DNA from: an uncultured Verrucomicrobiota bacterium
Lineage (GTDB): Bacteria; Verrucomicrobiota; Kiritimatiellia; CAIQIC01; Lenti-01
Assembly (NCBI GenBank): GCA_964393515.1
Contig: CAYMTY010000006.1
Span: forward strand, 38,334 to 102,333
Length of the DNA stretch: 64,000 nucleotides
Direction: 5' to 3'
Positions 5,206 to 23,400 of the stretch are shown one piece after another. The notes under the pieces are model-generated. The model ran no database searches. It was not told the DNA's origin and saw only the letters and a list, made by a program, of their open reading frames with translations. Numbering within the stretch: the stretch's first letter is position 1; each line of letters begins with the position of its first letter. The position numbers and the translations under genes were made by a program.

Positions 5206-5222
5206 TGACTGAGAAACAACAT

Positions 5223-5590: not shown

Positions 5591-5597
5591 CAGCAGT

Positions 5598-5634
5598 TTC
5601 CTCAGCTTTCACCTTTCAGCCCTCAGCCCTCTAT
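5598..5634. repeat. Right inverted repeat of IVS-like cassette 1. It overlaps the wzm stop codon.
   Basis: The reverse complement AGAGGGCTGAGGGCTGAAAGGTGAAAGCTGAGGAAA matches the 5173-5205 repeat. Confidence 0.55.
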
Positions 5635-6545
5635 ACGGTATCCATGAAGGTCCGTTCCACGCGATTGAAGATGGCCACACCGGCCAGGAGCGCGACCACA
5701 GCAAAGGCGGCGCTGTAGGCCAGCAGGCCCCAGGAGAAAGTTCCCTGCCCGAGGAAGCCCAGGCGGAAGGTCTCCACGACGGGGGTCATGGGATTGATCA
5801 GGAGAAACCAGCGCCATTTCGCCGGGATGGCGGCCAGCGGATAGACCACCGGGGCGGCATACATCAGCAGGCGTACGCCGAACTCGAGCAGGAAGCGCAG
5901 GTCGCGGTACTTGGTGGTCAGCGAGCTGAACAGGATGCCCAGGCCCAGGGCCTGGGCGGCCATCAGGAGCACCAGCCCGGGAAACAGCCAAACCGCCCAG
6001 GTCAGTTCGATGTGCGCCCCGCGCCAGGCATACCAGGCCCAGAAGCACAGGAAGAACAGGAACTGCAGGATGAATTTCAACAGATGGGAGAGCGCGAGGG
6101 ACAGCGGCACGGCCAGCCGGGGAAAATACACCTTGCCGAACAGGTGCGCGTTGCCGATGAAGGTGTTGGCCGTCGCGGTGAGCACATTGGCGAAGTACAT
6201 CCAGACCACGTTGCCGCTCAGGTAAAACAGCATGCGCGGCAGGCCGTCGGTGCTCAATTTGGCGATGCTGCTGAACACGACGATGAAAATCAGCGTGGTC
6301 AGGAGCGGCTGGATCACGAACCAGGCCGGCCCGAGGATGGTCTGCTTGAACTGGGCCACGAAATCCCGGCGGACGAACATCGCCACCAGGTCCCGGTACC
6401 GCCAGAGATCGGTCAGGTGCAGGTCGAACCAGCGCACGCGCGGCCGCAGGACCAGCTGCCAGCGATGGTCCGCCGGCATGGGCGTCAGCGGTATCCCGGC
6501 CGGTGAAACGTCCCCGGCGGTTCCGGCAGCGGGAGCGGGATTCAT
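5631..6545 (-). CDS. wzm: ABC-2 type polysaccharide export permease (Wzm-like).
   Basis: Six hydrophobic segments. The ABC-2 fold is indicated by FVRRDFVAQFKQTILGPAWFVIQPLL and LFGKVYFPRLAVPL. Start was chosen at MNPAPAAG, where the ATGA overlaps the upstream stop. Confidence 0.8.
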   Translation of the reverse strand: MNPAPAAGTAGDVSPAGIPLTPMPADHRWQLVLRPRVRWFDLHLTDLWRYRDLVAMFVRRDFVAQFKQTILGPAWFVIQPLLTTLIFIVVFSSIAKLSTDGLPRMLFYLSGNVVWMYFANVLTATANTFIGNAHLFGKVYFPRLAVPLSLALSHLLKFILQFLFFLCFWAWYAWRGAHIELTWAVWLFPGLVLLMAAQALGLGILFSSLTTKYRDLRFLLEFGVRLLMYAAPVVYPLAAIPAKWRWFLLINPMTPVVETFRLGFLGQGTFSWGLLAYSAAFAVVALLAGVAIFNRVERTFMDTV

Positions 6546-7849
6546 GCCGCCGCCCGCCCTTCCTCCGCGGCGGGGCGGGTACCGGCCCACAGGCCGGCCC
6601 AGGCCGCCGCCAGCACAGCGATCAGCGGCATGCGCAAGGGAAAATCAATCAGGCTGTGCAGGCCCAGGGCGGCCAGGCCGAAGCCCAGCGCGCGCCGTTC
6701 GAGGCCGGCAAAGGAAGGGATTTCCATTCTGGGCGGGCCGCCGGATTTCCGGGCGGACAGCGCCAGGCCTGCGGCCAGCAGAGTCCAGAGCCCGCCCAGC
6801 AAGCCGAATTCGGACAGGAACTGGACGGGTTCGCAATGCGCATGCAGGACCATGCGTCCGGCGTTGACCGGCGCCGCATAATAGGGATGCACGATGGAAA
6901 ACGTGCCCGGCCCCGTGCCCCACAGCGGCGCCTCCTGCCAGGCCTTCAGGGTTTCGGCCAGGATGCCGCCGCGGAAATGCCATTCGCGCAGGAAAGCGGC
7001 GGGTTGGCGCCAGCTCCGGGCCAGGGTGACCGCCGCCCAGCCGATCAGGCCGGCCGCGGCCAGCCAGGCCAGCGCCCGGGCCGGCCGCGATCTCGGCGCT
7101 CCGGCGAAGGGATGCTGGCGGACCACCTGGCGGCAGAGGAGCACGTGGGCCGGCACCAGCAGCGCCAGCACCGCCACGCCTGCACGCGACCGGGAGGCCA
7201 CCACGGACGCAGCCAGCACCACGGCCCCCAGCAGCAGCAAGCCCGCTGGACTGGAAGGCCGCCCCGCCTGCACGGCGCTGAACCGGGCGCGGGCCGCCAG
7301 GGCCAGCGCCACCGGCAGGACCAGGTTCGCAAACGCGGCGAAATGGTTTTCATTCACGAAAATGCCGGTGTATTCGTAGATGGGAAAGCGCCGGGGCTCG
7401 AGCCGCTGGGCCAGCACCAGCAAGGCCATGGCGACAGCGCCCAGAACCACCGCCAGCAGCGCACCGCGGATTTGCCGCCCGGAAAGCTGGAACGCCAGGG
7501 CATAGGCGCCCAGCATGGCGGTCGCCACGCCCAACGCCGCCCAGGTCTCCGACGGACAAGCCGAACCCGGCAGGAAGCGCACATGGCCAACCGGCAGCAG
7601 GCCGGCGGCAGCCGTCCATTGGTGGGTGGCATTCCCGGCATAGAGCGCCACCAGCCCCAGCCCGGCAGCCGCGGCCAGCCCAATGCGTCCCCGGCAAGTG
7701 CCGCAGGCCAGGCCTGCGGCCAGCGCCCCCCCCCCCAGCGCCGGCAGCAGCCAGGCGCCCCAGGCCGGCGCCGCAAACGGCACCACCGCGGACGCGCCCA
7801 GCAACAACAGGAGCAGCGCCCCGAACCATGGACAACGGTCGGCTTTCAT
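6542..7849 (-). CDS. O-antigen ligase / Wzy_C family polytopic membrane protein.
   Basis: Multiple TM helices and a periplasmic loop carrying the Wzy_C-like stretch NENHFAAFANLVLPVALALAA. The ATGA start overlaps the wzc stop. Confidence 0.6.
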   Translation of the reverse strand: MKADRCPWFGALLLLLLGASAVVPFAAPAWGAWLLPALGGGALAAGLACGTCRGRIGLAAAAGLGLVALYAGNATHQWTAAAGLLPVGHVRFLPGSACPSETWAALGVATAMLGAYALAFQLSGRQIRGALLAVVLGAVAMALLVLAQRLEPRRFPIYEYTGIFVNENHFAAFANLVLPVALALAARARFSAVQAGRPSSPAGLLLLGAVVLAASVVASRSRAGVAVLALLVPAHVLLCRQVVRQHPFAGAPRSRPARALAWLAAAGLIGWAAVTLARSWRQPAAFLREWHFRGGILAETLKAWQEAPLWGTGPGTFSIVHPYYAAPVNAGRMVLHAHCEPVQFLSEFGLLGGLWTLLAAGLALSARKSGGPPRMEIPSFAGLERRALGFGLAALGLHSLIDFPLRMPLIAVLAAAWAGLWAGTRPAAEEGRAAA

Positions 7850-9996
7850 CCGTCCGCACGGGATTCCGGGCCGGCGGGCGCGGAATGATAGTACCGGTAG
7901 GTGTAGCCGCCATAGCGGCGGTAATAATAATAGTTGGCCATCGACTTGAAATTGACCCCGTTCATGATGCAGCCCAGGCAGGGGGTGCCGCCCTCCTGGA
8001 GCTTGAGGATCGCATGGCGGGCGCCCAGGCTGTGGGTGACGCCGTAGCGAACGACAAACAGCACGCCGTCCACGTTGGGCAGCAGCACGAGGGAATCACT
8101 GACGCCCAGGATCGGCGGGGCATCGACGATGACATGCTGGTACTGTTCGCGCGCCTCCCGGAGGAAATCGACGAACGGCTGGCGGCCGAGCAGTTCGGCG
8201 GGGTGCAGGGGCAGGTGCCCCGAGGAAATCACGCCGAGGTTCGGCACATCCTGCTGAAGCAGGACCTCCCGCCAGCGGGTCTCGCCTTTGAGGACATCGG
8301 CCAGGCCGATCGCGTCCGGTTGCGTGTCGAAAATTCTTGTCAGCACCGGCCGGCGCAGGTCGGCGGCGACCAGCAGGGTGCGGCGGCCGTCCTGGGCCAG
8401 GCTGATGGCCAGGTTGGTCGAAACCAGGGACTTCCCCTCCCCGGGACCGGCACTGGTGATCATCAGGACGGGTGCGTTGCGGATCTCCTCCTTGAGCAGC
8501 AGGCTGGCGCGCAGCGTGCGGAAGGATTCGGCCACCTCGCTGGTCTGCCGCAGATGGGCGACCATGCCGCGCTCCCGCACGGTCTTGTCGCCGATCAAGG
8601 GCACCGTGGCCAGCACGGGCAGGCCCAGCAGGCGCTCGACCTCCTCATTGCGGCGGAACCGGTGGTCGGCATAGTAGAACAGGAAAATCGCGCCGATGCC
8701 GAGGATCAGGCCGAAGGCGGCCCCCCGCACCACGGCCTGGCCCAGCCGCGGCCGGAACGGGGCCTTCGCGGGCCGCGCCTCCTCCACGATGCGGATGATG
8801 TCGGCCGGCAGGGTCTCGGAAATGCTGGCCTCCTTCATGCGGGCGATCACGGCCTGGTGGATCTCGCGGTCGGCCTCGACGTTGAGCTTGAGCTCGTTGT
8901 AGCGCACCAGCTTGCGGTCCAGGTCGAACGCCTCCTTCTCCTGCTTCTTCAGGGCGGCCAGGAGATTCCGCTCCCGCTCGACCAGGACCTCGTAGCGGTT
9001 CTGGAAGGCGTACAGGGCATCGTCGCAGGCCTGTTCAAACTGCTTCTGGAGTTTCTTCTCCTGTTCAAGCGCCTGCTGCAGGTCGGGATACTGTTCGCGG
9101 TAGCGCTGCTGCAGGCGGTCGACCTCGCGCTGCTGCTCCTGGACCCGCTGGTGCGCCGCCTGCACGTTGGCGTCGCTCATCACGGCCGCGATCTTGCTGG
9201 CCGGAACGTTGGTTTCAATCTGCGCCTGGATGGACTTCCAGGCCGTCTCGGCCTGGATGCGCTCCGTCTGGGCTGCAGTCAGCGCCTGGTTCAACGCCTT
9301 GAGCTTGTCGATAACGATGTTCTGGTCCTCCTCCAGCGAAACCGAACCGGTCTCCTCGCGGTAGTGCTGCAGTTCGGCCAGGCCCTTTTCGAGCTTGTCG
9401 CGGTATTCCTCGGAGCGTTCGCGCAGCCACTCGACCGCCTCCAGGGAGGCGTTCATGCGCATGTCGAGGTACTGCTGGATGTAGGACTGGGCGAGGGCGT
9501 TGGCGAAAGCGCTGGCGGCCTGCGGATCGGCATGCTCGACCGTGATGTCGATCATGCGGGTCTTCTCCACCGCCTTGATCGCCACCAGCCTGCGGGCGGC
9601 CTCGGCCTTGTCCTCGGGGGTTTTGCCCCCGGGCAGGAACCCGGGCTGCTGATCCAGCCCGCTCCGTTCCAGGGCCGCCGCCATCATGTTGCGGCTATGG
9701 AGCGCATTCAGGTGCGTGTTGAAGAACTCGAGGCTGCGGGTGTTGTAGGACAGGACATCCTGGAAATTCAGGATCTTGGGGATCTGCGCCTCCACCAGCA
9801 GAGTGGCCGTGCTGCGGTACATCGGCGTCTGGCGGCGGGCGTTGAGGAAAAACAGCAAAAAGACGACGGCGGCCACCGACAGGCCCAGCCAGGCGCGTTC
9901 CATGAGGATGGCCACGGCCTCGCGCCAGTCGGGAAACTTGGAGAGGCTGTTTTCGCCGCTGTCGCCGCCGTTCGCAATGTAGGGGGTCTTGGTCAT
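7846..9996 (-). CDS. wzc: Polysaccharide co-polymerase with a C-terminal BY-kinase domain (Wzc/GumC/EpsG-like, PCP-2a).
   Basis: N-terminal Wzz-like domain with two TM segments, long coiled coils, a Walker A motif (MITSAGPGEGKSLVSTNLA) and a tyrosine-rich tail (YYYRRYGGYTYRYY). Confidence 0.85.
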   Translation of the reverse strand: MTKTPYIANGGDSGENSLSKFPDWREAVAILMERAWLGLSVAAVVFLLFFLNARRQTPMYRSTATLLVEAQIPKILNFQDVLSYNTRSLEFFNTHLNALHSRNMMAAALERSGLDQQPGFLPGGKTPEDKAEAARRLVAIKAVEKTRMIDITVEHADPQAASAFANALAQSYIQQYLDMRMNASLEAVEWLRERSEEYRDKLEKGLAELQHYREETGSVSLEEDQNIVIDKLKALNQALTAAQTERIQAETAWKSIQAQIETNVPASKIAAVMSDANVQAAHQRVQEQQREVDRLQQRYREQYPDLQQALEQEKKLQKQFEQACDDALYAFQNRYEVLVERERNLLAALKKQEKEAFDLDRKLVRYNELKLNVEADREIHQAVIARMKEASISETLPADIIRIVEEARPAKAPFRPRLGQAVVRGAAFGLILGIGAIFLFYYADHRFRRNEEVERLLGLPVLATVPLIGDKTVRERGMVAHLRQTSEVAESFRTLRASLLLKEEIRNAPVLMITSAGPGEGKSLVSTNLAISLAQDGRRTLLVAADLRRPVLTRIFDTQPDAIGLADVLKGETRWREVLLQQDVPNLGVISSGHLPLHPAELLGRQPFVDFLREAREQYQHVIVDAPPILGVSDSLVLLPNVDGVLFVVRYGVTHSLGARHAILKLQEGGTPCLGCIMNGVNFKSMANYYYYRRYGGYTYRYYHSAPAGPESRADG

Positions 9997-10071
9997 AGAC
10001 TATAGGCGGTAGGCGGCGGACTGTAGGGGAAAGAAGTCATAGGGATTAGGCTGCAGGGGGTGGGCTGTAGG
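9997..10071. repeat. Left inverted-repeat region of IVS-like cassette 2 (ATAGGCGGTAGGCGG / GGCTGTAGG motifs).
   Basis: CTATAGGCGGTAGGCGGCGGACTGTAGGGG ... GGGCTGTAGG pairs with the reverse complement of 10452-10489 (GACGATAGGCTGTAGGCTGTAGCCG). Confidence 0.5.
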
Positions 10072-10074
10072 TTT

Positions 10075-10432
10075 TCATTTGTTGCGCATGGAACGAATCA
10101 GCGCTCCAAGTACTTTTTCAGATTCCGGCATTTTCAAGTCGCCCTCACAAGCGATCTTTTCGCCAATATATCCCAACCGCAGGGACAACCCGAACTGGTA
10201 ATGCAGTTCTCGCAAGGAACCAAATGCCACTTTGAGAAAATGCCGGTATTCGGCTTGGCTCTCATATGCATATCCCTCCACAATGTTGGATACAACTGAA
10301 ACCGCCGCCCGCCTCATTTGCGAGGTCAAACCAAACAACTCTTCTTTGGGCAAACTCCCGCGTGATCCGGTAGACCAAAATCGCAATCCCGTCAGCCAGT
10401 TTAAAGGCCCTGAGCTTCGTATGATCCCGCAT
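10075..10432 (-). pseudogene. Four-helix-bundle protein (23S rRNA IVS protein family), second copy. Disrupted by a 1-nt insertion.
   Basis: N-terminus MRDHTKLRAFKLADGIAILVYRITREF in one frame. C-terminus ...PKEELFGLTSQMRRAAVSVVSNIVEGYAYESQAEYRHFLKVAFGSLRELHYQF... in the +1 frame (ORF 10075..10386). The extra base lies in GAGTTTGCCCAAAG. Confidence 0.6.
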
Positions 10433-10451
10433 TGCTTTCCTAACGTCTTCC

Positions 10452-10489
10452 CGGCTACAGCCTACAGCCTATCGTCTACAGCCTTCTTC
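10452..10489. repeat. Right inverted repeat of IVS-like cassette 2.
   Basis: CGGCTACAGCCTACAGCCTATCGTCTACAGCC is the reverse-complement partner of the 10003-10030 region. It ends at the wza stop codon. Confidence 0.5.
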
Positions 10490-11155
10490 CTAGAACAGCA
10501 CCTGATCCACCGTGATGACATCGTTGGGTTCAAGCGGGACATCCTTTTCCCCGTCCCTGCTGCGCAGCAGGTCCGACACCCGGATCCGCAGAGTGTCCTG
10601 GTGCCCGTCGGGCGTGCGCCGCACAATGCGGACGCGGTCCGGGCTGGCCAGTTCGGTGAAGCCACCCGCCCCGGCAATGGCCTGTAGCAAGGTCATGGAA
10701 CTGCCAAACGGTAGGGGGTAGACCCCGGGCTTCTTCACCTCGCCCAGCAGCACGATCTGGGAGCTCTGGGTGGACACCATCTTGAGGATGACTCGCGGGT
10801 TGACCAGATAGTCCTTGGCCAGACGCGCGGTCAGCGCCGCCTCGGCTTCCTTGACCGTCTGGCGGTCCAGCAGCACGGTCCCCAGCAGCGGATGGCGGAT
10901 TTCCCCCTCCGGGCTGATCTGGAACACGCCGGACAGCTCGGGCTCGCGGTAAACCTGGATATCGATCTCGTCGCCCGGCTGCAGGAGGTATTCAGGGGGG
11001 ATTCCGGCCGCGGCGGGCGGCGCCGCCGGCGCGGGTTGCGCCCGCGGCTGCGCGGCCGCCGGCGGGTGGGCGCAGCCGGCGGACATCCCCGCCAGCCCCA
11101 GGCTCAGGACGGCCGCGACTCCGCACCGCCGGATTGTGGTCATACGCGATTCCAT
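10490..11155 (-). CDS. wza: Polysaccharide export outer-membrane lipoprotein (Wza/OPX-like: Poly_export plus SLBB domains).
   Basis: Lipobox-like signal (...LAGMSAGC). Also IQVYREPELSGVFQISPEGEIRHPLLGTV and DVITVDQVLF, typical of the Poly_export/SLBB domain. Confidence 0.8.
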   Translation of the reverse strand: MESRMTTIRRCGVAAVLSLGLAGMSAGCAHPPAAAQPRAQPAPAAPPAAAGIPPEYLLQPGDEIDIQVYREPELSGVFQISPEGEIRHPLLGTVLLDRQTVKEAEAALTARLAKDYLVNPRVILKMVSTQSSQIVLLGEVKKPGVYPLPFGSSMTLLQAIAGAGGFTELASPDRVRIVRRTPDGHQDTLRIRVSDLLRSRDGEKDVPLEPNDVITVDQVLF

Positions 11156-11212
11156 GGGGTGATGGATAGCAAAACCGCGGGGGAAAGGGAATGCCGGAAT
11201 TGCCGCCGGGAG

Positions 11213-12508
11213 CTAGTAGTTCCAACTGGCGCGCAGGGTCCAGCGTCCGTATTCATAGGAAGTGGCCTCCTGCAGCTCGGCATCCGCGTCCTGGCTGCCA
11301 TCGCGCTGCATGTAGGAATAGGCTAGGCCTAGGGAGAAGTGCTGCTTGGTCCACCAGTCCACGCCCAGCGTGAACCCCCAGTAGTTGTCGCTCCGCCCGT
11401 CGAAGGCCAGGGGCGCCGCCCCGGCCGCCGGCTCCGCCTCTCCGCCGTGGTAGTCGATCCGGCCGAGCGTGACGGACGCGTTGCCGCGCAGGCGTTCAGA
11501 GAACAGCCGGCGGGCCGCGGAGACCACCACGCCCTGGTCCACCGTGTCCAGGCCCGCCTCGTCGGCGGCCGGGCGCACATCCGCATAGAGCTCGGCGCTG
11601 AAGGCGGTCAGCCCGAACGGGCTGCTGCGGGCTTCGAGCGCGGCGATCCAATGCTCGAACGAGCCGCGCGCTTGGTCGTCGTAGGTCCGCCACATGTAGC
11701 CCACCCGGCCGGACGAGGAGAACTTGGGCGACTGCTTGCCGCGCACGCCCAGCGCCAGATCATGGTAGTCGGCGCCGCTGGCGGCATCGGTTGCATCCCG
11801 GGGCTCGTCGCGGCCGAGGCCGGCCTGCACGAATCCCTCGCTTTTGGGGGTCAGGCGGTGGTACAGCCGGCCGCCGCCGTAATAGCGGTCGTAATCCACG
11901 TAGTCTTCCGCGTCGAAATCGTGCCGTTCGGCGCGCCCCAGGCCCCCCAGGCTGGACTTGCCTGAGATCCGGTGCTCCGCGCTGAGATCGGCGAAATAAT
12001 CCCGCTTGAGGACGCGCGCGCCGACCACGGCATCCAGTTCCTCCAGGTGGCGGTAGCCGAACTGGCCGTTGATCTGGCTTTTAGGCGTGCGGTAGACGGC
12101 CCCCAGGCGCAGCAGGTGGCTGGGCCGATCGCTGACCTCCTCCTCGCTGTTGTACAGCGGGATGCCCAGGCCGTAGTCGGCGTAGAGGTGGTTGTCCGCC
12201 GGCCGCCCCCAGATGGCCAGCAGGCCGGGGGCCAGGTTGACGGAAGTCGCCGCGGTCCCGTCCTCCGGATCGAGGAACACGTTGTCCTCGTGCGAGACCG
12301 ACAGCGTCACCCGCGGCAGGAGCGCCCCGGTCTTGACCGGCATGTAGAACGGATCGAAGACCGCGCCGCCCTGATCCAGGTAGAAGGCGGTCTCGACGCC
12401 GCGGGTATAGAAGCCCGAAGCATAGCTGTCGAGCGCGGCCCATACGGACAGGGGCGCCGCTCCGGCGGCGCCCGCCAGCAGGAACCAGATGAGGATCCGT
12501 TGCCTCAA
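11213..12508 (-). CDS. Putative outer-membrane beta-barrel protein. Family unassigned.
   Basis: Signal peptide (L)RQRILIWFLLAGAAGAAPLSVWA, alternating beta-strand pattern and a C-terminal aromatic ...RASWNY. The start was set at the TTG at 12508, just after the upstream stop. The track ORF to 13405 overlaps the hydrolase gene. Confidence 0.45.
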   Translation of the reverse strand: MRQRILIWFLLAGAAGAAPLSVWAALDSYASGFYTRGVETAFYLDQGGAVFDPFYMPVKTGALLPRVTLSVSHEDNVFLDPEDGTAATSVNLAPGLLAIWGRPADNHLYADYGLGIPLYNSEEEVSDRPSHLLRLGAVYRTPKSQINGQFGYRHLEELDAVVGARVLKRDYFADLSAEHRISGKSSLGGLGRAERHDFDAEDYVDYDRYYGGGRLYHRLTPKSEGFVQAGLGRDEPRDATDAASGADYHDLALGVRGKQSPKFSSSGRVGYMWRTYDDQARGSFEHWIAALEARSSPFGLTAFSAELYADVRPAADEAGLDTVDQGVVVSAARRLFSERLRGNASVTLGRIDYHGGEAEPAAGAAPLAFDGRSDNYWGFTLGVDWWTKQHFSLGLAYSYMQRDGSQDADAELQEATSYEYGRWTLRASWNY

Positions 12509-14406
12509 CGGTTCGCCTCCAGGTAGCGGAAGCCCTGGATCAGCTCGATTTCCCGCCGATTGTACGGGGTGCCGTCCGGCTCCAGCACGCCCTGCTGCCA
12601 GAGATCCGGATCCTTTTCCGACCGGAAGTGGGGCTGCTGAATTTCCAACTGGGTCTTGCCTTGCACGAGGCCGCGGTTGAACCAGCCCACCCGGTAGGCG
12701 GAGAACAGCGGCAGCACCTTCTCGAAGTCGTTGCCGGTCTGGCGCATCAGCCAGTCGGCGCAGATGATCGGGCGGTTGTAGCGCTGGAGCAGAAGCAAAC
12801 GCGCCTCGATGCTTTCGACATTGTCGAAGCTCTGGAAGGTGATCAGGTCGGAGCGTTCCAGCTTGCGGGTGGCCATCGCGCTGCCGAACTCGCGCCAGGC
12901 GGCGACCGCCAGCGGCTGGGAAGCCTCGACCGAGCGGGCCCAGTTGAAGGTCTGGTCCATCAGCGGCAGGGATTCCTCCCACAGCCCGCTGTTGCCGGCG
13001 GTGTTGTAGAGGTCCCAGTAGAGGATCCGGCCGTCGCGCTTGAACCGGCCCATCACGTCCTTGACGTATTTCTCCAAGGCGGACCATTGCGCGCGGTCGG
13101 TGACGGCGGCATGGGCCGGGCTGGGCACCCAGCGGCTGTTGTACTGGCCCGGCACCGGTTCGGGCTGGGGCCCGGGCTGCGGCGGCTGGCCGGCCAGGTC
13201 CAGGTCGTCGAACAGCACCGGCACGATGCGCAGCCCGTGCTTGCCGGCCAGGTCGAGCAGCTGGTCCACGCGCTTCAGGAAGCCGTCGGGATCGGCCTGC
13301 CACACCACGAACTGCAGCGGGACGCGGATGGCCGTGTAGCCGAGGCTGCGGGCCCAGCTGAGCTCTTCGTCGATCGTGTCGGGATCGAAGGTGTCCGCCA
13401 TCCACATTTCCACGGAGTTGACGGCGGTGCGGGGAATGTAGTTGACACCCTTGATCGTGCCGATGTTTTCAAACCAGTTCCAGATGCGCAGCTCCTCCCA
13501 GCGCCCGCCCGGCGCCCCCGCCCCCGGCCGGGGCAGCCTCGCGGGCACGGCCGAGGCTACGGACGGACGGATCGTCGGGCTGGCGTCGGTGACCAACGCG
13601 CCGGAATCCAGCGTGACGATGTCGGAGGACAGCCCCAGGTACTGCGCCAGCCCGTCCCGGTCGAAACCGCGCTCGCGGTAGATGAAGGGCTCCAGGTCGG
13701 CAAAGAACGTGTTGCACAGTTCGAAGTAATGGAGTTCGGGATCGGTCGCCACGCCCTCCTCTTGCAGGTCGCTGCGCTCGGTCTCCGGATCGAACGTCAT
13801 CCGGGCGGCTTCGCCGGCCTGCAGTTCGGTGCGATTGCCGCCGCGGGGCACGACCGCCAGTTCGTAGGCATCGCTGTAGACGTCCCAGCCCTCCCGGCCC
13901 TTCTGCGCCACGACGAACGAACCGCCCTGCGCCTCGACAGTGCCGGCCGGGGTCTCGATCCGGATGTCGAGCGTCGGAGACGGCGGTCCAGCCTGCACGC
14001 GCATCCGGCCCTTGTGGAGCTGGAGGTGGATGCGCCGGACCAGATCGTCCTCGGTCCGGGGCAGGCCATCGGCGGTATGCCGCAGCTGCATGATCGTAAA
14101 CTCGGTGTTGGGGGCCACGCACAGGATCGCTCCTGGCGAGCAAACCATGCACAGCCGGCCGTCCCTGCCGGTCATTACGCGGGTACTCTCGCCCACCGCC
14201 GCGCCTTCCAACAGCCCCCGCGTCTCCTGGCGCCCTTCGTGCACGGGTGCGGTATAGACCCGGGCGGTGGCCCGGCCAGCCTGGGCCGCCACGACGGCCT
14301 CCCCCGTCGGCGGCAGCGCGCGGGCCGGCAGCGCCAGCAGCCAGCCGAAGGCCAAGCCAGCCATGGCCAACCGGCCGGTCCGGAAAACGATGCTTGTCTT
14401 GTTCAT
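12505..14406 (-). CDS. Secreted protein with an N-terminal FecR-like beta-sandwich and a C-terminal TIM-barrel glycoside-hydrolase-like domain (GH5/cellulase-superfamily-like).
   Basis: Signal peptide MNKTSIVFRTGRLAMAGLAFGWLLALPARA. Glycosidase-like stretches IKGVNYIPRTAVNSVEMW and YTAIRVPLQFVVW. A canonical NEP catalytic motif was not found, so enzymatic activity is uncertain. Confidence 0.4.
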   Translation of the reverse strand: MNKTSIVFRTGRLAMAGLAFGWLLALPARALPPTGEAVVAAQAGRATARVYTAPVHEGRQETRGLLEGAAVGESTRVMTGRDGRLCMVCSPGAILCVAPNTEFTIMQLRHTADGLPRTEDDLVRRIHLQLHKGRMRVQAGPPSPTLDIRIETPAGTVEAQGGSFVVAQKGREGWDVYSDAYELAVVPRGGNRTELQAGEAARMTFDPETERSDLQEEGVATDPELHYFELCNTFFADLEPFIYRERGFDRDGLAQYLGLSSDIVTLDSGALVTDASPTIRPSVASAVPARLPRPGAGAPGGRWEELRIWNWFENIGTIKGVNYIPRTAVNSVEMWMADTFDPDTIDEELSWARSLGYTAIRVPLQFVVWQADPDGFLKRVDQLLDLAGKHGLRIVPVLFDDLDLAGQPPQPGPQPEPVPGQYNSRWVPSPAHAAVTDRAQWSALEKYVKDVMGRFKRDGRILYWDLYNTAGNSGLWEESLPLMDQTFNWARSVEASQPLAVAAWREFGSAMATRKLERSDLITFQSFDNVESIEARLLLLQRYNRPIICADWLMRQTGNDFEKVLPLFSAYRVGWFNRGLVQGKTQLEIQQPHFRSEKDPDLWQQGVLEPDGTPYNRREIELIQGFRYLEANR

Positions 14407-14986: not shown

Positions 14987-15886
14987 TCACGCCAAAGCCC
15001 CTTCCCCGGCCAAGGCCTCCACCGCTGCCGCTGTCTTCGTGAAATGAAACTGCGCGGGTTTGATCTCGCGCACCAGCCGGTTCAAGCCGTCCAGGGTTCC
15101 CTGCGCCCAGGAGTCCTCGAACCAAGGCACCGCGGCCACGTCCAGCATGGCCAGCCGGGCCTGCACCGCCGGCAGCAGCTGCACGCGTTCCGTGGCCGCC
15201 TGCCGCAGCAGAAAGAGGCCGCCCAGCGGCGCCTCCTCCGCCTCGGCGAAGCAGCCGGAGCCGTGCCACGGCGTGCCGGCCACCCGCCATTCCCCGCCGC
15301 GGCGAAAGACCATGGCGCGGTCGTCGTTCAGGATCCGCCAGCCCTGCGCATGGCAAAGGCCGGCCAAGGTGGACTTGCCCGCGCCGCTGCGGCCGGCAAA
15401 TACCCAGCCTGTACCTTCGTGAACCGCGGCGGCTCCGTGCACCAGCGCGCCGCCCAGGCGCGACAGCATTCCCCAGGCGAGAAACTGGTCCAGCGGATAA
15501 TGCAGCGGCGCCTCCAAGCCATCGGAATGCCGGGACAGCCAGGCCGGATCCAGCGCCAGTTCCGCGCGGGAGAGATCGCGCGCCACCCGACAGCCGTAGC
15601 GGGCCCGGCCCGGCTCCTGGAATCCCGCGCAGCACAGCAGGTCCGCGCCCTGGTCCCAGACCGCCCAGCATTGGCCGCGCCGCCACAGGGGGGCGGCGGC
15701 GGGCAGCGGCGTCGCCCGCGGCACCAGATCCACATCCAGAATGGCTAGCGGCTCCGGAGCGCGGCGGGCGCCGCCCCGGGAAAAGAAGTTCCGATAGCCC
15801 GGTTCAGAATACCGGACCGGGCGCAGGCCTTCGCCCTGCAGTTTCAACCGCAGGGGGCCAATGTTGATTTGACCCAGATGGCTCAT
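14987..15886 (-). CDS. HPr kinase-related P-loop protein (HprK-related kinase A-like).
   Basis: Walker A FAGRSGAGKSTLAGL, embedded in an HprK C-terminal-domain-like context. The start was set at MSHLGQINIGP, where the ATGA overlaps the stop of the small upstream ORF. Confidence 0.65.
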   Translation of the reverse strand: MSHLGQINIGPLRLKLQGEGLRPVRYSEPGYRNFFSRGGARRAPEPLAILDVDLVPRATPLPAAAPLWRRGQCWAVWDQGADLLCCAGFQEPGRARYGCRVARDLSRAELALDPAWLSRHSDGLEAPLHYPLDQFLAWGMLSRLGGALVHGAAAVHEGTGWVFAGRSGAGKSTLAGLCHAQGWRILNDDRAMVFRRGGEWRVAGTPWHGSGCFAEAEEAPLGGLFLLRQAATERVQLLPAVQARLAMLDVAAVPWFEDSWAQGTLDGLNRLVREIKPAQFHFTKTAAAVEALAGEGALA

Positions 15887-16059
15887 GAACCCGGCTCGAA
15901 AAAACCCGGTTCCTCGATCGGGCACGGCTCGGTCATTTTGCAACCTTCGCCCAGCGTTTCGGCCAGCGCCAGATCCACGCGCTTGATCTCCGGCTTGGCA
16001 TAGGGCCGCCGCACCGTCAGTTCGTCGGGCGTCTGGATATTGTCAGGCTCGGGTTTCAT
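15883..16059 (-). CDS. 58-aa small ORF. Candidate RiPP precursor peptide or accessory peptide.
   Basis: MKPEPDNIQTPDELTVRRPYAKPEIKRVDLALAETLGEGCKMTEPCPIEEPGFFEPGS. Both ends are ATGA-coupled, to the radical SAM stop and to the kinase start. It has an amphipathic leader-like helix and a Cys-x4-Cys acidic core. Confidence 0.4.
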   Translation of the reverse strand: MKPEPDNIQTPDELTVRRPYAKPEIKRVDLALAETLGEGCKMTEPCPIEEPGFFEPGS

Positions 16060-17114
16060 CGGACATCTCCGGCTTCGGGGGTCAGGGCCATCTTGTAGCG
16101 CAATTTGGCGGTGGTTTGCATGTACTGGGAATCCCGCTCTTCGTCGCCGGTTTCCAGGGCGTTGAAGGCGGGGCAATGGGTGCAGGCTCCGCGCAGGGGG
16201 CCGCGGGCCGGCACCACGCGGCGGCGGCGGCGGATTTCGGCGAGTTCGCCGTTCCATAGTTCGCGGAACGGGCGGCCGGCGGATTCGCAGCGGTAGCGCG
16301 TGGCCAGCAGGCACGGGGAATAGCCGCCGAAGGGGTCGGCATGGAAGAAGGTCTGGCCGGCGGCGCAGGCATACAGGCGTTCGTCTGCCGGGAAGGCCGC
16401 GACGCGTGCGATCGTCTCGCGCCATTTCTGCTTCCGCCCGGGCCGGGCCAGGTCGCGCCGCACGGCTTCTGCCGGCGGCACCCGGAGCGCCAAGGGCGCC
16501 GGCGAACCGTCCGTGAGGCACGGAAAGACCGCCGCATCGTGGCGAAAATCCACGCCCAGTTCCCGCGCCTGCCGTTCCATGGCCTCCAGCTCGTGCCGGT
16601 TGACCGTCAGCAGCATGGTCTTGAGGACCACGCGGATGCCGGCCGCCTGCAGTCGGCGGATGCCCTCCCAGGCGCGCGCGTGCGAGCCCGGGACGCCGGT
16701 AACGGCTTCATGGACTGCCGCCGTGGCTCCGTACAGGCTGATCTCAACCTTGCGCGGCGGCAGTTCGCGGAACAAAGCCACGATTTCTTCCGTCACGAGC
16801 GTGCCATTGCAATAGACCGTCACGACCATCCCCAATTCCCGGGCGTGGCGGTAGATTTCCGGAAAATCGGGCCGCAGCATCGGTTCACCGCCGGAAATCA
16901 GCAGATAGAGGCAGCCGGCTTCAGCCCACTCGGCGAGCCGCGCCTGCACGGTGGCGGGGCCGAGTTCCCGGTCGCGCAGGCGGTGCTGGGCGGCCTGGTC
17001 GCCGAGGTAGCAGTGGGCGCAACGCAGATTGCAGCGGCGCGTCAGCTCCAGCATGGCGGAGACCGGCCGGCGCGCCCGGGAATTTCGCCCGCGAAACGCT
17101 TCCAGCCAATCCAT
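16056..17114 (-). CDS. Radical SAM protein with a C-terminal SPASM domain.
   Basis: CNLRCAHCY (CxxxCxxC) near the N-terminus. SPASM cysteines are in ...YACAAGQTFFHADPFGGYSPC... and ...GACTHCPAFNALETG. The start could be 17114 (MDWLEAF) or 17054. Confidence 0.8.
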   Translation of the reverse strand: MDWLEAFRGRNSRARRPVSAMLELTRRCNLRCAHCYLGDQAAQHRLRDRELGPATVQARLAEWAEAGCLYLLISGGEPMLRPDFPEIYRHARELGMVVTVYCNGTLVTEEIVALFRELPPRKVEISLYGATAAVHEAVTGVPGSHARAWEGIRRLQAAGIRVVLKTMLLTVNRHELEAMERQARELGVDFRHDAAVFPCLTDGSPAPLALRVPPAEAVRRDLARPGRKQKWRETIARVAAFPADERLYACAAGQTFFHADPFGGYSPCLLATRYRCESAGRPFRELWNGELAEIRRRRRVVPARGPLRGACTHCPAFNALETGDEERDSQYMQTTAKLRYKMALTPEAGDVR

Positions 17115-17474: not shown

Positions 17475-20400
17475 TTATAAAAGCCGTAGACAATACAAAA
17501 TCTGGGCCTGCGGAAGCGTGGGCGTGCCGATTCCCCCGTTCCGCTGGATGATGGCGCCGTTCGTGGACTTCAGGACCAGCCACTTGCCGGAGCCGGGGAA
17601 GAAAACCGCCAAATCGGCCTTGCCATCCCCGTCATAGTCCGCCGGCACTGGTACGGGATTCTTCTCCTGCGTGCCGAATCTCGCCGTGCGATTGCCGCCG
17701 GTGCTGTTTGCGATGGTCCACGTGGCGGTCTTGCGGGCGAATACGGCAAGATCCGCCTGGCCGTCGCCGTCGTAATCCGCCGGCACCGGCAGCGCGGCGC
17801 CGCCGCCCAGCGTTTTTTGCACCGGCTGGCCGTCGGACGAGCGCAGAATGTGCCATCGGCCGCCGGCGGTTGCATGCATCGCCAGGTCGGTCCGGCCGTC
17901 GCCGTCGTAATCCGCCGGCACCGGCACCATGCCCGGCAGGCCGAAGGCCACGTGCCATTCGGCCCCGCCGCCGCTGGGCCGAACCTGCCACCGGGAGTTC
18001 GCGCGGTGGTACACGGCGGGATCCCCGATGCCATCGCCGTCGTAATCGCCCGGAACCGGGCACGCCGCGGCCGCTGGCCCCAGCTTCACCACGCGGTCCT
18101 TGCCGCCCGCGGACGGCCGGATATGCCAGTTGCCCGACGACGGCTGGAAGACGGCCAGATCTGTCATCCCATCGCCATCGTAATCCGCGACCGCCGGCAG
18201 CGTCAGGGACGTGCCAAACCGGAGTGCCCGCAGGCCCAGCGAACTGCGCGACTGGAACCAGAACCGGAACTTGAGGCCGTAGCGGGAGAAGTCTGCCAAT
18301 CCGTCGCCGTCGAAATCGTGCAGCTGGCCGAACGGCCCCCGGGGCCACCAGAGCACCTGGTCCAACCAGCCCGCATCAGCGCCCTTGGCGCCACGGCGGT
18401 CCTTGGCGTACTCCCAGCGCAACGTCGCCGCCCCTGGAATCCTCCAGGATTTCCACTGCCAACCGCTTTCGCCGGAAATGGCCGCCTTGGGTGCGCCGTT
18501 GATCCACAGCCGCAGGACATCCTGGTTCGGCTGCGAAGAGGCCTTCCACCAGAAGCTGATCCAGCCCGGACCGGTCATCGTTGTCTCCAGCCAGCTCCGC
18601 TGGCCATGGCCGATGGCCCCGCTCTGCAGCGCTTCCACCCCGTCGTAGGTTGTGTGGGACTGGCTGAACCACGGCGCGCTGCCGCCCGTGGTCCACGTCA
18701 ATCCCGGCGCGTTCAAGGCCGCGTCCCGGTCCGCGCTGTAGGAATGGAACCGGGCCGAGTAGGCCGCACCATCGGCCGGCACCCTGATCGTGCGCGGATT
18801 CTCGAGGCTGCCGTCGCTCCAGCCGGTGAAGGCCCAGCCCGGGTTCGGGGCGGCGGAAATCCGCACCTGCGTTCCCTGATCATAGGTGCCGCCGCCCGCC
18901 ACAGTCCCGCCCGCGGCCGGATCGGCCGTCACTTCCACCACCGCGGTCAACCGCCGGAAGGTTGCCGTGTAGGTCCGGCCGCCGGCCGGCACCATGATCA
19001 TGCGCGGATTGGCCAGTTCGCCGTCGGTCCAGCCGGTGAATTCCCAGTTGGAGGCAGCCTCCGCGGTAAGTTTCACGAGCTCACCCACGCCGCAGGTGCC
19101 CCCGCCAGCGACGGTGCCGCCTTCAGGCGGGTCGGCCGCCACGGAAACCTGCGCCAGCTGCCGCTGGAACAGGGCGGTGTAGGCCATGCCGCCATGGGTG
19201 ACCGTGACCGTCCGCGGATTGCGTGTAACTCCATCGCTCCAGCCTGCGAAATCCCAATGGTTGCTCGTCGTGGCCGTCAAGGTGGCCCGCGCGCCGGAAG
19301 GATAGACGCCGCCGCCGCCGGCCGTGCCGCCTTCCGGCGGCTGGCTGTTCACCGTGAGCACCAGGGCCTGCCGGTCCGTGTTGCCCGCGATCTTCAGGGC
19401 CGGATCGCCGAGCAGGTTGTAGACCGCCAGCGTGTCCCGCGAGATGAATTCGGTTTGCACGGCGCGGCGCGCCTGCAGGATGGCCAGGCCCAGCCGGCCG
19501 CAGCCCTCCTGGAGCACGGCCCGGTAGAACGCCACGCCCAGGTCGCCGGCCGGCGCGTTGCGCGACAGGCCCGACGGACTCCATGCCGCCACCGCCCCGC
19601 CCGTCGCCCGCTGCAGCAGCACCTCGCCGAGGTTGTCCACGCCTGGCATCTCGAACCGCCCCGCCAGGCAGGTCAGGGCCACCGCCACCGGCTTGCGGGC
19701 GTTGGCCATGACATGGACATCCGTGTCCTTCAGCAGGTTCTTGGCGCTCCAGTTCTTGGCGCCGCCATGGCCCGTGAAGTGAACGAAGCCCACGCCGGCC
19801 TTGAACCAGTTGGACAACGACATGCGCGCCGCGGCGATCGCCGTGGTGTCCAGATTGATCCGCGCCGCCAGCGGATGCGCCGTGTCCTTCAGGGCCGCAA
19901 TGCGGTCATTGACCTTCATGAAACTGCCGGCGGCATCGTCCGCGGTGTCGGTGGCCAGCACCAGTTGGTTCTGCCAGTCCGCACCGAACTCGGTCTCGAA
20001 GGCTTTGATTTTCGCGATCATTGCCGCCAGGTCCGCGGCGTTCCGCGCCGGCAGACGCCCAAGGGCCACATCCGGCAGTGCGTCGCCGTCCGCGTCCGCG
20101 AACAGGCCGTCGGCGGCGAAGAGCCCCTCCATCGTCGCCAGCAGCAGCGGCGGCAGATGGTTCACTTCGTTGCTCTTCACCCCGAGGTAGTCGTAGTGGC
20201 CGTTGCCGGCCAGCACCACCATCCACGGAGCCTCGGTCCAGGTTGTTTGGGCATAGGCCAGCAGTTCGGGAATCGCTTCGGGTGTCCGCAGTCCACCCGT
20301 CAGCAGGTCGCAGACATCTTCGAACACCGCCACGCCCGAGCGCAGCCCCTGCCCGGCCCGGTAGTCCGAAAGTTCCTGCGCCGTCTCCGCCAGCGCCCGC

Positions 20401-23400
20401 GAGGCCACGACGAGATAATCAATCCGGTTGTCCGCCGCGAGGAACCACGCGTCCGCCGCCGCCGCCTCGGGCGCTAGCAACGGCAGTTCCGCGGTCTCCA
20501 CCAGCGCGAACCGCTCGCCGTTGGCCGCGGCCCACGTCTTGTCGGACAGCGCGCCGCTTTCGTCCGCAATCCACGCCGGCACGCCGTCATCATCCAAAGC
20601 CACCGCCAGCGGCGCGGCAAATGCCGCCGCCGAAACACCCGCGCCGTCCGTGCGGAAGTGGACCGTCCCCGCCCCGGGATCCAGCCGCCGGTTGTACGCC
20701 GCCGTGAACCCGTCCACCACGAAGTAGCTGTACAGGCCGGCCGCCGGCAGCGCGCCGCGCACCGTCAGCGTGTTGGCGCCGGCCATCGCCACGCCCTCTG
20801 GAATCGTCAGGGTCGCCGTTGCGGCTTTCTGATCGTCGAATTCGAGCGCGCCGAGGGCCACGCCATTCACGAAGAACTCCGCCCGGTGGTCCGGAGTCCG
20901 GTCCGTCCGCGTCCAGCCCAGCAGGTCCGCCGTGAGCGTCACCGGCCCGCCGGCATAACCGTTCAGGACGAACGGGAAATCCACCCGGTTCAAAGCCGGG
21001 TTCACCGAGGCGGTCACCATCTTCCAGTAGTACCAGTCCTCCGGCAGTTCGGTCATCGTCGCGTTGCCGATGCCCTGGTCCTCCTCGAACCGCACCTGCA
21101 CCGGGAACACCGTGCCGCCGGCCGCGGCCCCCGGTTCGCGCCGGGCCATCGGCAGGCCTTCGCCCGCTTCGATTAGAACCGCGTTGTCGCGCGCATACCA
21201 GTTGTCGGTCGGCTTCCCATGGAACACCATCCGGCCGTTCGCCGTGTCATAAATCACCGGCACGGGCGCGCCCTGTTCGGTGAAGGCCAGGCCGTTCTCT
21301 TCCGCCAGCGCCTGCACGTCTTCCCGCGCCAGCCCCATGCCGTCGGCGATGGCCTGCAGCGAAACGCCGTAGAGCCCTTCCTGCTTGAACAGTACTTTCA
21401 GCACCGGCGATGGTCCCGCGAGTTTCTTGGGCGCGACGTCCCGCGGCGCGGCCTTGGCCGCCCGCGCGGTCCGCGGGGCGGGCGGCGGAGGGACAAACTG
21501 GATTTCGTGCGTGCCGTGGTCCACCGTGCCGCCCGTCAGCTCCGCCTCTTCCAGCCGGTACAGGCCGCGCCCGCCTGCGACCGCGGCCGGATCCGCCAGC
21601 GTGTACTCCGCCCCGTCCTCCTGCAGCGCCGACGGCACCAGTTCCGCGTTCAGCCGGGTTTCCTCGCCCGTGTCGGGATCCACCCGGTACACGCAGAAGC
21701 CCGCCGTGTCGAACTCAGACGACGTCCGCCAGGCGACCTGGCCGGCCTCCCCGCGCCATTCGCCCCACACTTCCGCCAATTCCGCCCGGGTGGAACCCAG
21801 CGGCCCCAGTCCCAGGTCCAGCGTCAGATTCGTCTGCGCGCCGGCCAGGACGAAGTTCGTGGTCCAGGCATAGCCTCCGACTCCGCCGTTCACCGCATCG
21901 CTGTCCAGCGCGGTGTCGCCGCCCTGCAGGGCGGGCGACAGGGCCGTATAATTGGTGTCGAGGCCGCTCAGGTCGAACCGGATGTAGTACGTCCCCGGCA
22001 CGATGTTGGCGAACAGGTAGGCCCCCTCCGCGGTGGTCACCATCGAGGTCACCACCATCCCGTTTGTGTTCATCAGCGCCACCGGCACGTCCGGGATGCC
22101 GTTGGTCTCCCCCGAATCCTGGATGCCGTCGCCATTGACATCGAACCAGACCCGGTCGCCGACCGTGGCCCCGCCCTTGGGCACGATCACCACCGCGCTG
22201 ACGTCGTTCGACGGCACCGGATCGTAGAGGTCGCGCGCCGTGACGGCCGCCGAATTCGTGATGCGCTTCCCGCCCGTGCCTTCGTAGACCGTCACGTTGA
22301 AATACAGCGTCGTGGAAGCGCCCACCGCCAGCGAGCCGACGCTCCAGATGCCCGAAACCGGGTTGTAGGTTCCGTTCGAATGGCTGTTGTACTGCACATC
22401 GGCAGGCAGCACGTCCGTAAGTTCCAGGCCTGTTGCCGTGTCCGGACCGTTGTTCGTCGCCACCACCCAGTAGTCGATGATCGCGGTCTGGTCCGGTTCG
22501 GTCTCCGTCACGAACTTCGTCACGCCCACGTCGGCGTACTGCACGCAGTTGGTGACCGACGACTGAGTCGCCGGCTGCACGGAGCTGTAGGCGCTGGCGG
22601 TGTTCAGAATCTGGGTTACCGCAGAAGGCGAATCGACGGTGGCCTGGAAGGTGATGGTGACGGTCGCCCCGGTGTCCAGAACGCCGCCGGTCCAAAGGTT
22701 CGGCGGCGCGCCGAGCGCGCCCGAGGTGGCCTGGGAGGTGTCGTAGGACAGAACGATGCGCCCGGCCGCGCCCGCCCCGCCGGTGCGGGTGCCCGAGCCG
22801 GTACGGAGACCGCCGCCACCGCCGCCGCCCGGCGCGTTGCCGGCGGTGCCGTTGCCTTGGGTGCCGCTGCGGCCATTGCCGCCGGCGCCGCCGCCGGCGG
22901 GCGCCGCCGCGCCCGTCTGGTTGGCCGCGTTGTTGCCGGCCGCACCGGTGCCGGCGGAAGAGCCGCCGCCGCCGCCGTAGGAGGTGCCTGACCCGTTCGC
23001 GCCGTTGCCGCCGGCGTAAAGCGTATCGCCGATGCCCGTGGCCGCCGAACCGCCCGCCGCTCCCGTCGCGCTGTTGTTGACGCCGCCGCTGCCGCCGCGC
23101 GCCAGCACGCCCGTCGTCGAACCCAGGCTGAACCACGAATCGCCGCCGGCCGTGTTCGCCGCGCCGCTTGCGCCGACGTTCACGACGTAGTTGCTGCCGG
23201 GCAACACGGCCACGGCCGCGCGGCTGTAGGCGCCGCCGCCCCCGCCGCCGCCGCCGCCGTTGGAGGTGCGCGTCGCGCCGCCGCCGCCCCCGCCCCACGC
23301 CTGGACCGTGGCCGACGTGATGCCCGCGGGCACCGTGAACGTGGTCGAGGCGTTGTTGGTCAGCGTCACCACGCCGCCCGTCGGGTTGTAGAACGTGGCG

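Follow-up and report, generated by a model that had tools for sequence, protein, structure and literature searches.

What is encoded by a short open reading frame (ORF) that is squeezed between two longer genes and overlaps them both, and which proteins might act on its product? The ORF in question (positions 15883–16059, minus strand) lies in a 64,000-nucleotide stretch of DNA from an uncultured member of the Kiritimatiellia (contig CAYMTY010000006.1), referred to here as the window, and was put forward in a preliminary description of the sequence as a candidate precursor peptide. It is, we find, a real small gene under purifying selection at the protein level, conserved far beyond chance. 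Its product is probably the ribosomally made substrate, or precursor peptide, of a four-gene modification cassette whose other members encode a PqqD-family chaperone, a radical S-adenosylmethionine (SAM) enzyme and an ScmC/HprK-like protein.

A small gene under purifying selection

Translation of the minus strand gives MKPEPDNIQTPDELTVRRPYAKPEIKRVDLALAETLGEGCKMTEPCPIEEPGFFEPGS followed by a TGA stop, letter for letter the peptide quoted in the preliminary description. That description had the frame hidden within a longer spurious one and missing from the annotation as a gene in its own right. Both statements are true of the ORF list, where the 58 codons appear only as the 3′ end of a 212-amino acid ORF with a GTG start (15883–16521, minus strand) whose 150 or so upstream codons are rich in Arg and Pro and read the radical SAM gene out of frame; the NCBI and Logan gene callers, however, already predict the 58-amino acid product, always unnamed. 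The peptide ATG overlaps the stop codon of the radical SAM gene (minus-strand junction GTC CGA TGA AAC) and the peptide TGA overlaps the ATG of the HprK-like gene (GGT TCA TGA GCC), with a GGAG located 7 nt 5′ of the peptide ATG. GC content at the three codon positions is 0.64, 0.46 and 0.73, the order GC3 > GC1 > GC2 fitting a coding sequence, and position-specific GC favours three real minus-strand genes in succession, encoding the radical SAM enzyme, the peptide and the kinase-like protein. A scan of the cassette for promoters and terminators returned nothing above shuffled expectation.

Homologues are plentiful. A protein database search identified the identical 58-amino acid product and 39 others (40 in total, 58–63 amino acids, with E-values down to 1e-24), a profile search of 1.84 billion cluster representatives returned 94 sequences at E < 1e-3, all but two of them 45–81 amino acids long, and a scan of metagenome contigs added 275 relatives. 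The profile used for the last of these was built from a subfamily with three cysteines; the full 91-sequence alignment had no block conserved enough. In one 257-amino acid entry from the representative search (P0174), a family peptide can be followed as far as ETLSEG, after which the miscalled long ORF continues, probably because of a frameshift in that assembly. Motif counts given below are drawn from 218 distinct peptides of 45–81 amino acids. All names seen for these in public annotation are ‘hypothetical protein’, and the family is covered by no Pfam or NCBIfam family, scans of the peptide against both collections being without a match.

Among the homologues from the protein search, R17, Y20, P23, RVDLA-AET, G39-C40-K41, P51 and G57-S58 are invariant (window numbering). 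Across the wider family the Tyr of the Y-x-x-P motif is followed by the first Cys at a distance of exactly 20 residues in 208 of the 218 peptides, and that Cys is flanked by Gly at −1 (202/218), Ala, Ser or Gly at −3 (205/218) and Lys at +1 (212/218). The last residue is Ser in 215 and the penultimate residue Gly in 203. Thus a Y..P..[ILV]...GCK block is conserved, with a variable core between and after the cysteines. The peptides carry two or three Cys in total and fall into two subfamilies on this basis, the window peptide belonging to the two-Cys group, where 74 of 108 members have the second Cys 13 residues from the C-terminus; in the three-Cys group the third Cys is mostly six residues from the C-terminus. 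The CxxxxC core of the preliminary description needs correcting, as the spacing is Cx5C (C40 and C46, with KMTEP between the first Cys and the second). What relatives preserve are the cysteines themselves, the placing of GCK 20 residues after the Tyr and the distance from the last Cys to the C-terminus; the Cx5C spacing is not kept, being mostly Cx5–8C in the two-Cys relatives.

The pattern of nucleotide substitution is that of a protein-coding gene. In a codon alignment of 19 orthologues, the invariant residues use two to five synonymous codons each, Gly57 being encoded by all four GGN codons and Ser58 by all four TCN codons. The mean proportion of synonymous differences (pS) is 0.65, that of nonsynonymous differences (pN) is 0.29, and the median pairwise ratio of nonsynonymous to synonymous rates (dN/dS) is 0.27, so that frame conservation and coding constraint, on which the preliminary description had staked its proposal, are both found in the relatives. 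The C-terminal Gly-Ser is retained where the next gene begins 30–65 nt further on and hence is not an artefact of the overlapping start codon.

Could the ORF nonetheless have arisen by chance, as an untranslated open frame between two genes in GC-rich DNA? It is short, matches no Pfam or NCBIfam model and sits within a longer spurious ORF, as such a frame might. Hundreds of homologues, however, keep its length, frame, motifs and position, synonymous substitutions have accumulated at its invariant residues and the start/stop overlaps with its neighbours are themselves conserved. The conservation analysis thus refutes this explanation, to which we attach practically no weight, and the homologues, the codon-level selection, the stop/start overlaps and the GGAG together establish that the gene is real.

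Partner proteins and a proposed route of maturation

On the minus strand of the window the order of genes is giant protein, a 16-nt spacer, PqqD, radical SAM (joined to the PqqD gene by a TTGA overlap), peptide and HprK-like protein. The same order, continuing through the peptidase and polysaccharide-export genes of Table 1, is found in 17 of 17 species-level loci from metagenome-assembled genomes (MAGs), all labelled Kiritimatiellia or Verrucomicrobiota. The core order PqqD–radical SAM–peptide–ScmC recurs at around 100 loci, persisting in metagenomes in which the enzymes are only 25–48% identical to those of the window; at two metagenome loci (L055 and L088) it is permuted to radical SAM–peptide–PqqD–ScmC. 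From this arrangement we propose that the cassette forms a tightly coupled translation unit downstream of a giant surface protein with a C25 peptidase domain. The small gene therefore has what is expected of the precursor of a ribosomally made, post-translationally modified peptide (RiPP) that depends on a RiPP recognition element (RRE): it lies with, and is conserved together with, the genes for a tailoring enzyme and a PqqD-like RRE, and its product has a conserved N-terminal block and a more variable core. In this the preliminary description was right, the peptide gene being of genuine precursor type and lying beside those for a PqqD-family RRE, a SPASM-lineage radical SAM enzyme and a kinase-like protein.

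The closest relatives of the PqqD-family chaperone appear, from profile comparisons, to be the B1 proteins of lasso peptide biosynthesis. When a profile of 44 orthologues was compared with the PDB, the best match was the lasso chaperone TbiB1 (1.4e-11, nearly full length), followed by two PqqD-family chains (one of them deposited as a lasso chaperone), TfuB1 and then PqqD (4.5e-6). All 44 orthologues matched the NCBIfam lasso_PqqD models, which were the best-ranking families, with every score below the cut-off; for the window protein the lasso B1 models NF033530 and NF033536 gave 29 bits against a cut-off of 70. Lasso leaders carry a YxxPxL motif at positions −17 to −12 and Thr at −2, a position that some phosphorylated lasso peptides fill with Ile or Val (PMC10368454). 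The spacing of Tyr, Pro and [ILV] in the present family is the same, the window peptide having Y20, P23, I25 and T35, and when positions are counted from the Tyr in the 93 locus peptides, −2 is Thr in 19 and Val in 74 and +1 is Ala, Ser or Gly in all 93. The best-supported candidate for the element recognised by the RRE is thus Y20-x-x-P23-x-I25 together with T35 at −2, a motif of the lasso type, and leaders of that type are bound by lasso RREs. This candidate is better supported than the stretch IKRVDLALAETL, which the preliminary description had likened to RRE-bound leader helices and for whose binding as a helix we found no evidence. The predicted leader would comprise residues 1–36 or 1–39, leaving a core that ends in G57-S58.

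The radical SAM enzyme possesses the CxxxCxxC cluster motif, whose three cysteines are invariant in 66 orthologues. Its best NCBIfam matches are to AhbD/AhbC/NirJ, MftC, GeoRSP, PqqE and ScmE/F, all far below cut-off, and no equivalog-level NCBIfam match was seen, including to any sactipeptide or ranthipeptide maturase; the best PDB match is PqqE (1.8e-13). The full SPASM motif has seven cysteines (Cx9-15Gx4C ... Cx2Cx5Cx2-3C ... C) and binds two auxiliary clusters. In the window enzyme it is degenerate and twitch-like, with four of the seven (C250, C268, C311 and C314, numbered from MDWLEAF). This varies with the peptide: three-Cys peptides are paired with a full seven-Cys SPASM enzyme at 47 of 47 loci (in the L021–L100 range), and in the two-Cys Kiritimatiellia clade to which the window belongs the enzyme lacks three of the seven SPASM cysteines in 19 of 19 cases. 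We infer that the enzyme acts on the Cys core of the peptide, thioether cross-links being the most likely product because the enzyme is of SPASM lineage and because loss of one peptide Cys parallels loss of one auxiliary-cluster site. The SPASM-type thioether of the preliminary description is therefore upheld as to the lineage of the enzyme, and has to be qualified as to its SPASM domain, in which only four C-terminal cysteines are conserved.

Pfam ScmC (PF27840) is present in the precomputed annotation of the window kinase-like protein and of all 120 listed homologues. Matches to the NCBIfam models HprK_rel_A, ScmC and HprK_rel_B are weak (about 1e-7) and below cut-offs, and a sequence search of the PDB gave nothing better than 0.17. 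An AlphaFold model built with a 60-homologue alignment (pLDDT 93.5) was confident: Foldseek matched it to ATP-dependent phosphoenolpyruvate carboxykinase (PEPCK) at 2e-6 and to HPr kinase/phosphorylase (HprK/P) at 5e-5 to 1e-3. Invariant in the family are H150, the P-loop S167–T173 and N187-D188-D189-R190, of which H150, the P-loop and D188-D189 align with the His, P-loop and Asp-Asp of Lactobacillus casei HprK/P. As judged from the model, then, the protein has an HprK/PEPCK fold with its catalytic residues intact. Homologues of HPr kinase that belong to lasso pathways act on the linear precursor, phosphorylating its C-terminal Ser, and the B1 protein stimulates one of them (PMC8498205; PMC10368454). 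By analogy, Ser58 would be phosphorylated by the HprK-like protein, and such a target would explain why the terminal Ser is invariant. Phosphorylation by the adjacent kinase, as suggested in the preliminary description, is accordingly plausible, since that neighbour is an HPr-kinase-like protein of the ScmC family and the C-terminal Ser fits the target of its lasso homologues (PMC8498205).

The least certain step is removal of the leader. Convergent with the cassette lies a gene for an S24/S26-like serine peptidase, which scores 27.7 bits with Pfam Peptidase_S24 (cut-off 23.3) and has as its best NCBIfam match sigpep_I_arch, the archaeal/endoplasmic reticulum (ER)-type signal peptidase I (33 against a cut-off of 51.85). 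Its GxSMxP, HR and GD motifs are kept in 28 loci. Where Lys is usual it has His-Arg, like signal peptidases of the ER/archaeal type, and the protein looks cytoplasmic, with no evident N-terminal membrane anchor. Type I signal peptidases follow a −3/−1 small-residue rule, and more than 92% of the peptides have small residues at −3 and −1 relative to Cys40. On these grounds the S24/S26-like protein is a candidate leader peptidase, and cleavage at [ASG]-x-G immediately before C40, which would suit such an enzyme since the site obeys the rule, is the most plausible, if speculative, of the candidate sites. Speculative too are the other options, namely cleavage between L36 and G37, as lasso numbering would have it, or after Lys41 by the C25 (gingipain-family) domain. 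Three further possibilities were considered and rejected: a double-glycine leader, because position 38 is not restricted to Gly, Ala or Ser and no C39 peptidase was seen; a lipoprotein signal peptide, because L-x-x-G-C is spaced unlike a lipobox and a hydrophobic h-region is missing; and A-L-A as a family-wide site, because it is absent from the three-Cys subfamily. Of the GG or AxA sites for which the preliminary description suggested looking, there is no GG-type site, and the A-L-A seen in the clade of the window is not kept across the family; the conserved pair is the [ASG]-x-G that precedes Cys40.

Taken together, these observations suggest a route in four steps. The lasso B1-like PqqD protein would bind the leader through Y20-x-x-P23-x-I25 and offer the C-terminal part of the peptide to the enzymes. 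The radical SAM enzyme would then modify the Cys core around G-C-K and the second Cys, most likely to give thioethers like those of sactipeptides or ranthipeptides, and the HprK-like protein may phosphorylate the side chain of Ser58, as its homologues do with lasso precursors. Finally the leader would be cut away, perhaps by the S24/S26-like peptidase before C40, or else at L36/G37 or by the C25 domain after K41. Several points weigh against this scheme. Phosphorylation, cross-linking and leader cleavage are all predictions from genes and sequences. The radical SAM, PqqD and kinase scores against every curated family fall below cut-offs, which precludes assigning any enzyme function by equivalence, and our literature search found no experimentally shown activity for ScmC-type proteins. 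The covariation between SPASM domain and peptide Cys number may go back to one evolutionary event only. Where the leader is cut is ambiguous, all three candidates (G39/C40, L36/G37 and after K41) fitting, and an S24/S26-like gene is found near the cassette in 23 of 43 loci of at least 5 kb, in varying positions and orientations, and may therefore be non-essential. Lastly, the cassette has no dedicated exporter within it.

Genomic setting and alternative readings

The features discussed are collected in Table 1.

Table 1. Position, strand and basis of assignment of the cassette, the peptide motifs and the neighbouring genes (numbering is that of the window)
Feature	Position	Strand	Basis
Putative precursor peptide gene, 58 amino acids plus stop	15883..16059	minus	Translation, homologue family, codon-level purifying selection, ATGA overlaps on both sides
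Predicted leader motif Y20-A-K-P23-E-I25 (YxxPx[ILV])	15985..16002	minus	Y20 and P23 invariant in the 91-sequence alignment; lasso spacing
T35 and L36 at lasso-type −2/−1 positions	15952–15957	minus	Counted by lasso leader spacing
G39-C40-K41 (‘GCK’) motif, with small residue G37 at −3 from Cys	15937..15945	minus	Counts across 218 peptides
Second cysteine, C46, 13 residues from C-terminus	15922..15924	minus	Position in two-Cys family
C-terminal G57-S58, with proposed phospho-acceptor Ser	15886..15891	minus	Ser last in 215/218, Gly penultimate in 203/218
HPr-kinase-like P-loop protein (Pfam ScmC), 299 amino acids	14987..15886	minus	PF27840 in precomputed annotation
Radical SAM enzyme, PqqE/SPASM lineage, about 352–361 amino acids	16056..17141	minus	Pfam Radical_SAM 3.6e-26
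PqqD-family RRE chaperone, 106 amino acids	17138..17458	minus	Pfam PqqD 2.7e-12; TTGA overlap with radical SAM gene
Giant secreted protein, about 3850 amino acids	17475..29033	minus	SdrD_B, DUF11, Gly-rich, Peptidase_C25, Flg_new_2 and FG-GAP domains
S24/S26-like serine peptidase, 145 amino acids	14445..14882	plus (convergent with cassette)	Pfam Peptidase_S24 2.4e-6
FecR-domain protein, 633 amino acids	12505..14406		Pfam scan
BBP2_2 outer-membrane barrel, weakly similar to EpsL	11213..about 12500		Pfam/NCBIfam scans
Wza-like exporter	10490..11155		Pfam/NCBIfam scans
GNVR/AAA chain-length regulator	7846..9996		Pfam scan
Wzt/Wzm-type ABC-2 transporter, GT2 and pyruvyl transferase	beyond the chain-length regulator, within 1533–14406		Pfam scan

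The stop codon of the giant gene upstream of the cassette lies 16 nt before the PqqD start, and the protein carries a Peptidase_C25 domain (7.8e-60) at residues 2873–3214. A gene encoding such a domain is found directly upstream of the cassette at 18 of 18 Kiritimatiellia-type loci and at no fewer than 22 of the 35 others for which there is upstream sequence, and the C25 His and Cys are each conserved in at least 95% of 41 aligned domains. In these upstream proteins the domain comes last or close to the end (E-values of 7.8e-60, 2.9e-69 and 2.3e-68 in three examples). The window encodes three paralogous giant secreted proteins, all on the minus strand (17475–29033, 32842–40374 and 50714–60757; about 3850, 2500 and 3350 amino acids, respectively), that are 56–71% identical in the Peptidase_C25 region and share DUF11, SdrD_B and glycine-rich repeats. 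The cassette follows the first of these genes only. Among the giant genes are encoded a 7TMR-DISM histidine kinase with PAS (29935–32778, minus), an SBP_bac_3-GAF histidine kinase (40796–43198, plus) and a PAS protein (44337–45008, plus), sensors that may regulate the surface-protein and exopolysaccharide genes.

On the other side of the cassette, positions 1533–14406 of the window hold a complete-looking polysaccharide biosynthesis and export locus that keeps its synteny with the cassette in Kiritimatiellia MAGs. Genes further downstream vary between distant loci, where an Ile-tRNA ligase, a transhydrogenase, adhesins or an exopolysaccharide exporter may be found. At one distant locus (L022:9584–10822) the cassette is followed by genes for a PEP-CTERM-motif protein, a Poly_export protein and a GNVR protein, so that the exopolysaccharide link is not confined to Kiritimatiellia. 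Because linkage to the C25 giant is conserved and a polysaccharide-export locus accompanies the cassette in the Kiritimatiellia clade, the setting points to a role at the cell surface rather than to a classical bacteriocin.

How else might the cassette be understood? The most serious alternative accepts the same biosynthetic route and differs as to the product, which would not be a free natural product but would serve the giant C25 surface protein as a small cross-linked subunit, a partner akin to a cofactor, a regulator or a substrate, in the manner of the quinohaemoprotein amine dehydrogenase gamma subunit, which is cross-linked by a radical SAM/SPASM enzyme. The usual upstream position of the C25 gene, the 16-nt gap between giant and PqqD genes, the conserved His/Cys dyad and a cassette devoid of exporter or immunity genes would all be in keeping with this, and the invariant Lys that follows Cys40 would suit a gingipain-type, Lys/Arg-specific protease. 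Against it stand several loci with no adjacent C25 gene and the two further C25 giants of the window that have no cassette; we regard this alternative as possible, though rather unlikely. A bolder variation would have the matured peptide act as a surface-assembly adaptor and not as an antibiotic, with a small residue or Cys at its N-terminus and its phospho-Ser joined to exopolysaccharide by a phosphodiester (compare the phosphoglycosylated lasso peptides), and the C25 domain serve as a PorU-like, sortase-like transpeptidase, as in type IX secretion, that joins protein to peptide and thereby tethers giant adhesins to the polysaccharide; this is a long shot.

Could the peptide instead be a true lasso precursor, phosphorylated like paeninodin, its core of G37–S58 cyclised from Gly1 to Glu8 by a cyclase encoded elsewhere? 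The window peptide does have a Glu at core position 8, and the YxxPxI motif at −17 to −12, the Thr at −2, the small residue at +1, the B1-like RRE and the HPr-kinase-like neighbour with its C-terminal Ser all recall that class. Yet neither an asparagine synthetase-like cyclase nor a transglutaminase-like B2 protein was seen among the window ORFs scanned (a subset of the total) or in the cassette neighbourhoods examined in relatives, the invariant partner is a radical SAM enzyme rather than a cyclase, and Asp or Glu occurs at core positions 7–9 in only 24 of 93 family peptides. With no cyclase or B2 found and the acidic ring residue not conserved, we conclude that a lasso peptide is very improbable. 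Equally improbable is a precursor of a peptide-derived redox cofactor such as pyrroloquinoline quinone (PqqA/D/E) or mycofactocin (MftA/B/C), in which the radical SAM enzyme would work on the C-terminal residues. A stand-alone PqqD partner, a strictly conserved peptide C-terminus and radical SAM alignments that include the mycofactocin maturase (6.8e-26, residues 45–292) and PqqE bring these systems to mind, but the enzyme reaches only 91 bits where the MftC cut-off is 265 and 78 bits where that of PqqE is 381, no PqqB/C-like or MftD/E/F-like genes are present at the loci examined, and the peptide has neither the Glu-x3-Tyr pair that is the hallmark of PqqA nor the C-terminal Val-Tyr that is the hallmark of MftA. 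A variable core, moreover, argues against a single cofactor structure.

We therefore favour the reading of the ORF as the precursor peptide of the four-gene cassette. We know of no substrate assigned to cassettes of the ScmC/HprK-like, PqqD and radical SAM type, and the present family, widespread and comprising 218 distinct sequences, provides a clear candidate. Its strict C-terminal Gly-Ser and its G-C-K motif offer direct experimental handles, and a role in the cell envelope, as suggested by the linkage to a gingipain-like giant and to polysaccharide export, would be unusual for a RiPP.

Comparison with known systems

Full-text literature searches found no description of a PqqD–radical SAM–peptide–ScmC system, and the likenesses that can be drawn are to parts of several. 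With the phosphorylated lasso peptides (paeninodin and those associated with ThcoK, SyanK and BsfK) the window system shares YxxPx[LIV] at −17 to −12, a −2 position occupied by Thr or Val/Ile, a small +1 residue, a PqqD-like protein whose closest solved relatives are B1 RREs, an HPr-kinase homologue in the cluster and a precursor that ends in Ser. It differs from them in lacking the lasso cyclase (C), the B2 protease and a conserved Asp/Glu at core positions 7–9 (24/93), and in having an invariant radical SAM partner, a G-C-K motif and two or three cysteines.

SynChlorMet, in which ScmC is HprK-like, ScmD PqqD-like and ScmE and ScmF are radical SAM/SPASM proteins, resembles the window system in combining a PF27840 HprK-like protein with a PqqD chaperone and a PqqE-like radical SAM enzyme. 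The window proteins nonetheless score far from the NCBIfam cut-offs (30.9 against 125 for ScmC, 14.7 against 100 for ScmD and about 75 against 400 for ScmE/F), there is one radical SAM gene rather than two, and a clear candidate precursor gene lies between the radical SAM and ScmC genes. The Scm cassette, as described in TIGRFAMs, is not known to have a precursor of its own.

With sactipeptides, ranthipeptides and the QhpC/QhpD pair the window system has in common its Cys core, its SPASM-lineage radical SAM enzyme and its PqqD-type RRE, and the acid-rich core of the window peptide recalls ranthipeptides and QhpC acceptors in particular. Unlike in these systems, the RRE of the window is a separate protein rather than the N-terminal domain of the radical SAM enzyme, the SPASM domain retains four of seven cysteines, a kinase-like protein and an invariant C-terminal Ser are added, and the thioether is putative. 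In the HPr-rel-A system (HprK-related kinase A/B with PqqD_rel_X; TIGR04352/04355/04353), an HprK-like protein is again paired with a PqqD chaperone; the resemblance is weak, the kinase-like protein scoring 31.8 and 30.4 bits and four of 44 PqqD orthologues matching TIGR04353, and all window scores are far below the 200-bit cut-off, with a radical SAM enzyme as the partner instead. Set beside these systems, the peptides most likely represent an undescribed family in which a leader/RRE/kinase module in the style of lasso peptides is coupled to radical SAM chemistry and a Cys core, as in radical SAM/SPASM RiPP pathways, and not to a lasso cyclase, a hybrid that offers a concrete test of how the RRE/leader module is re-used between RiPP classes.

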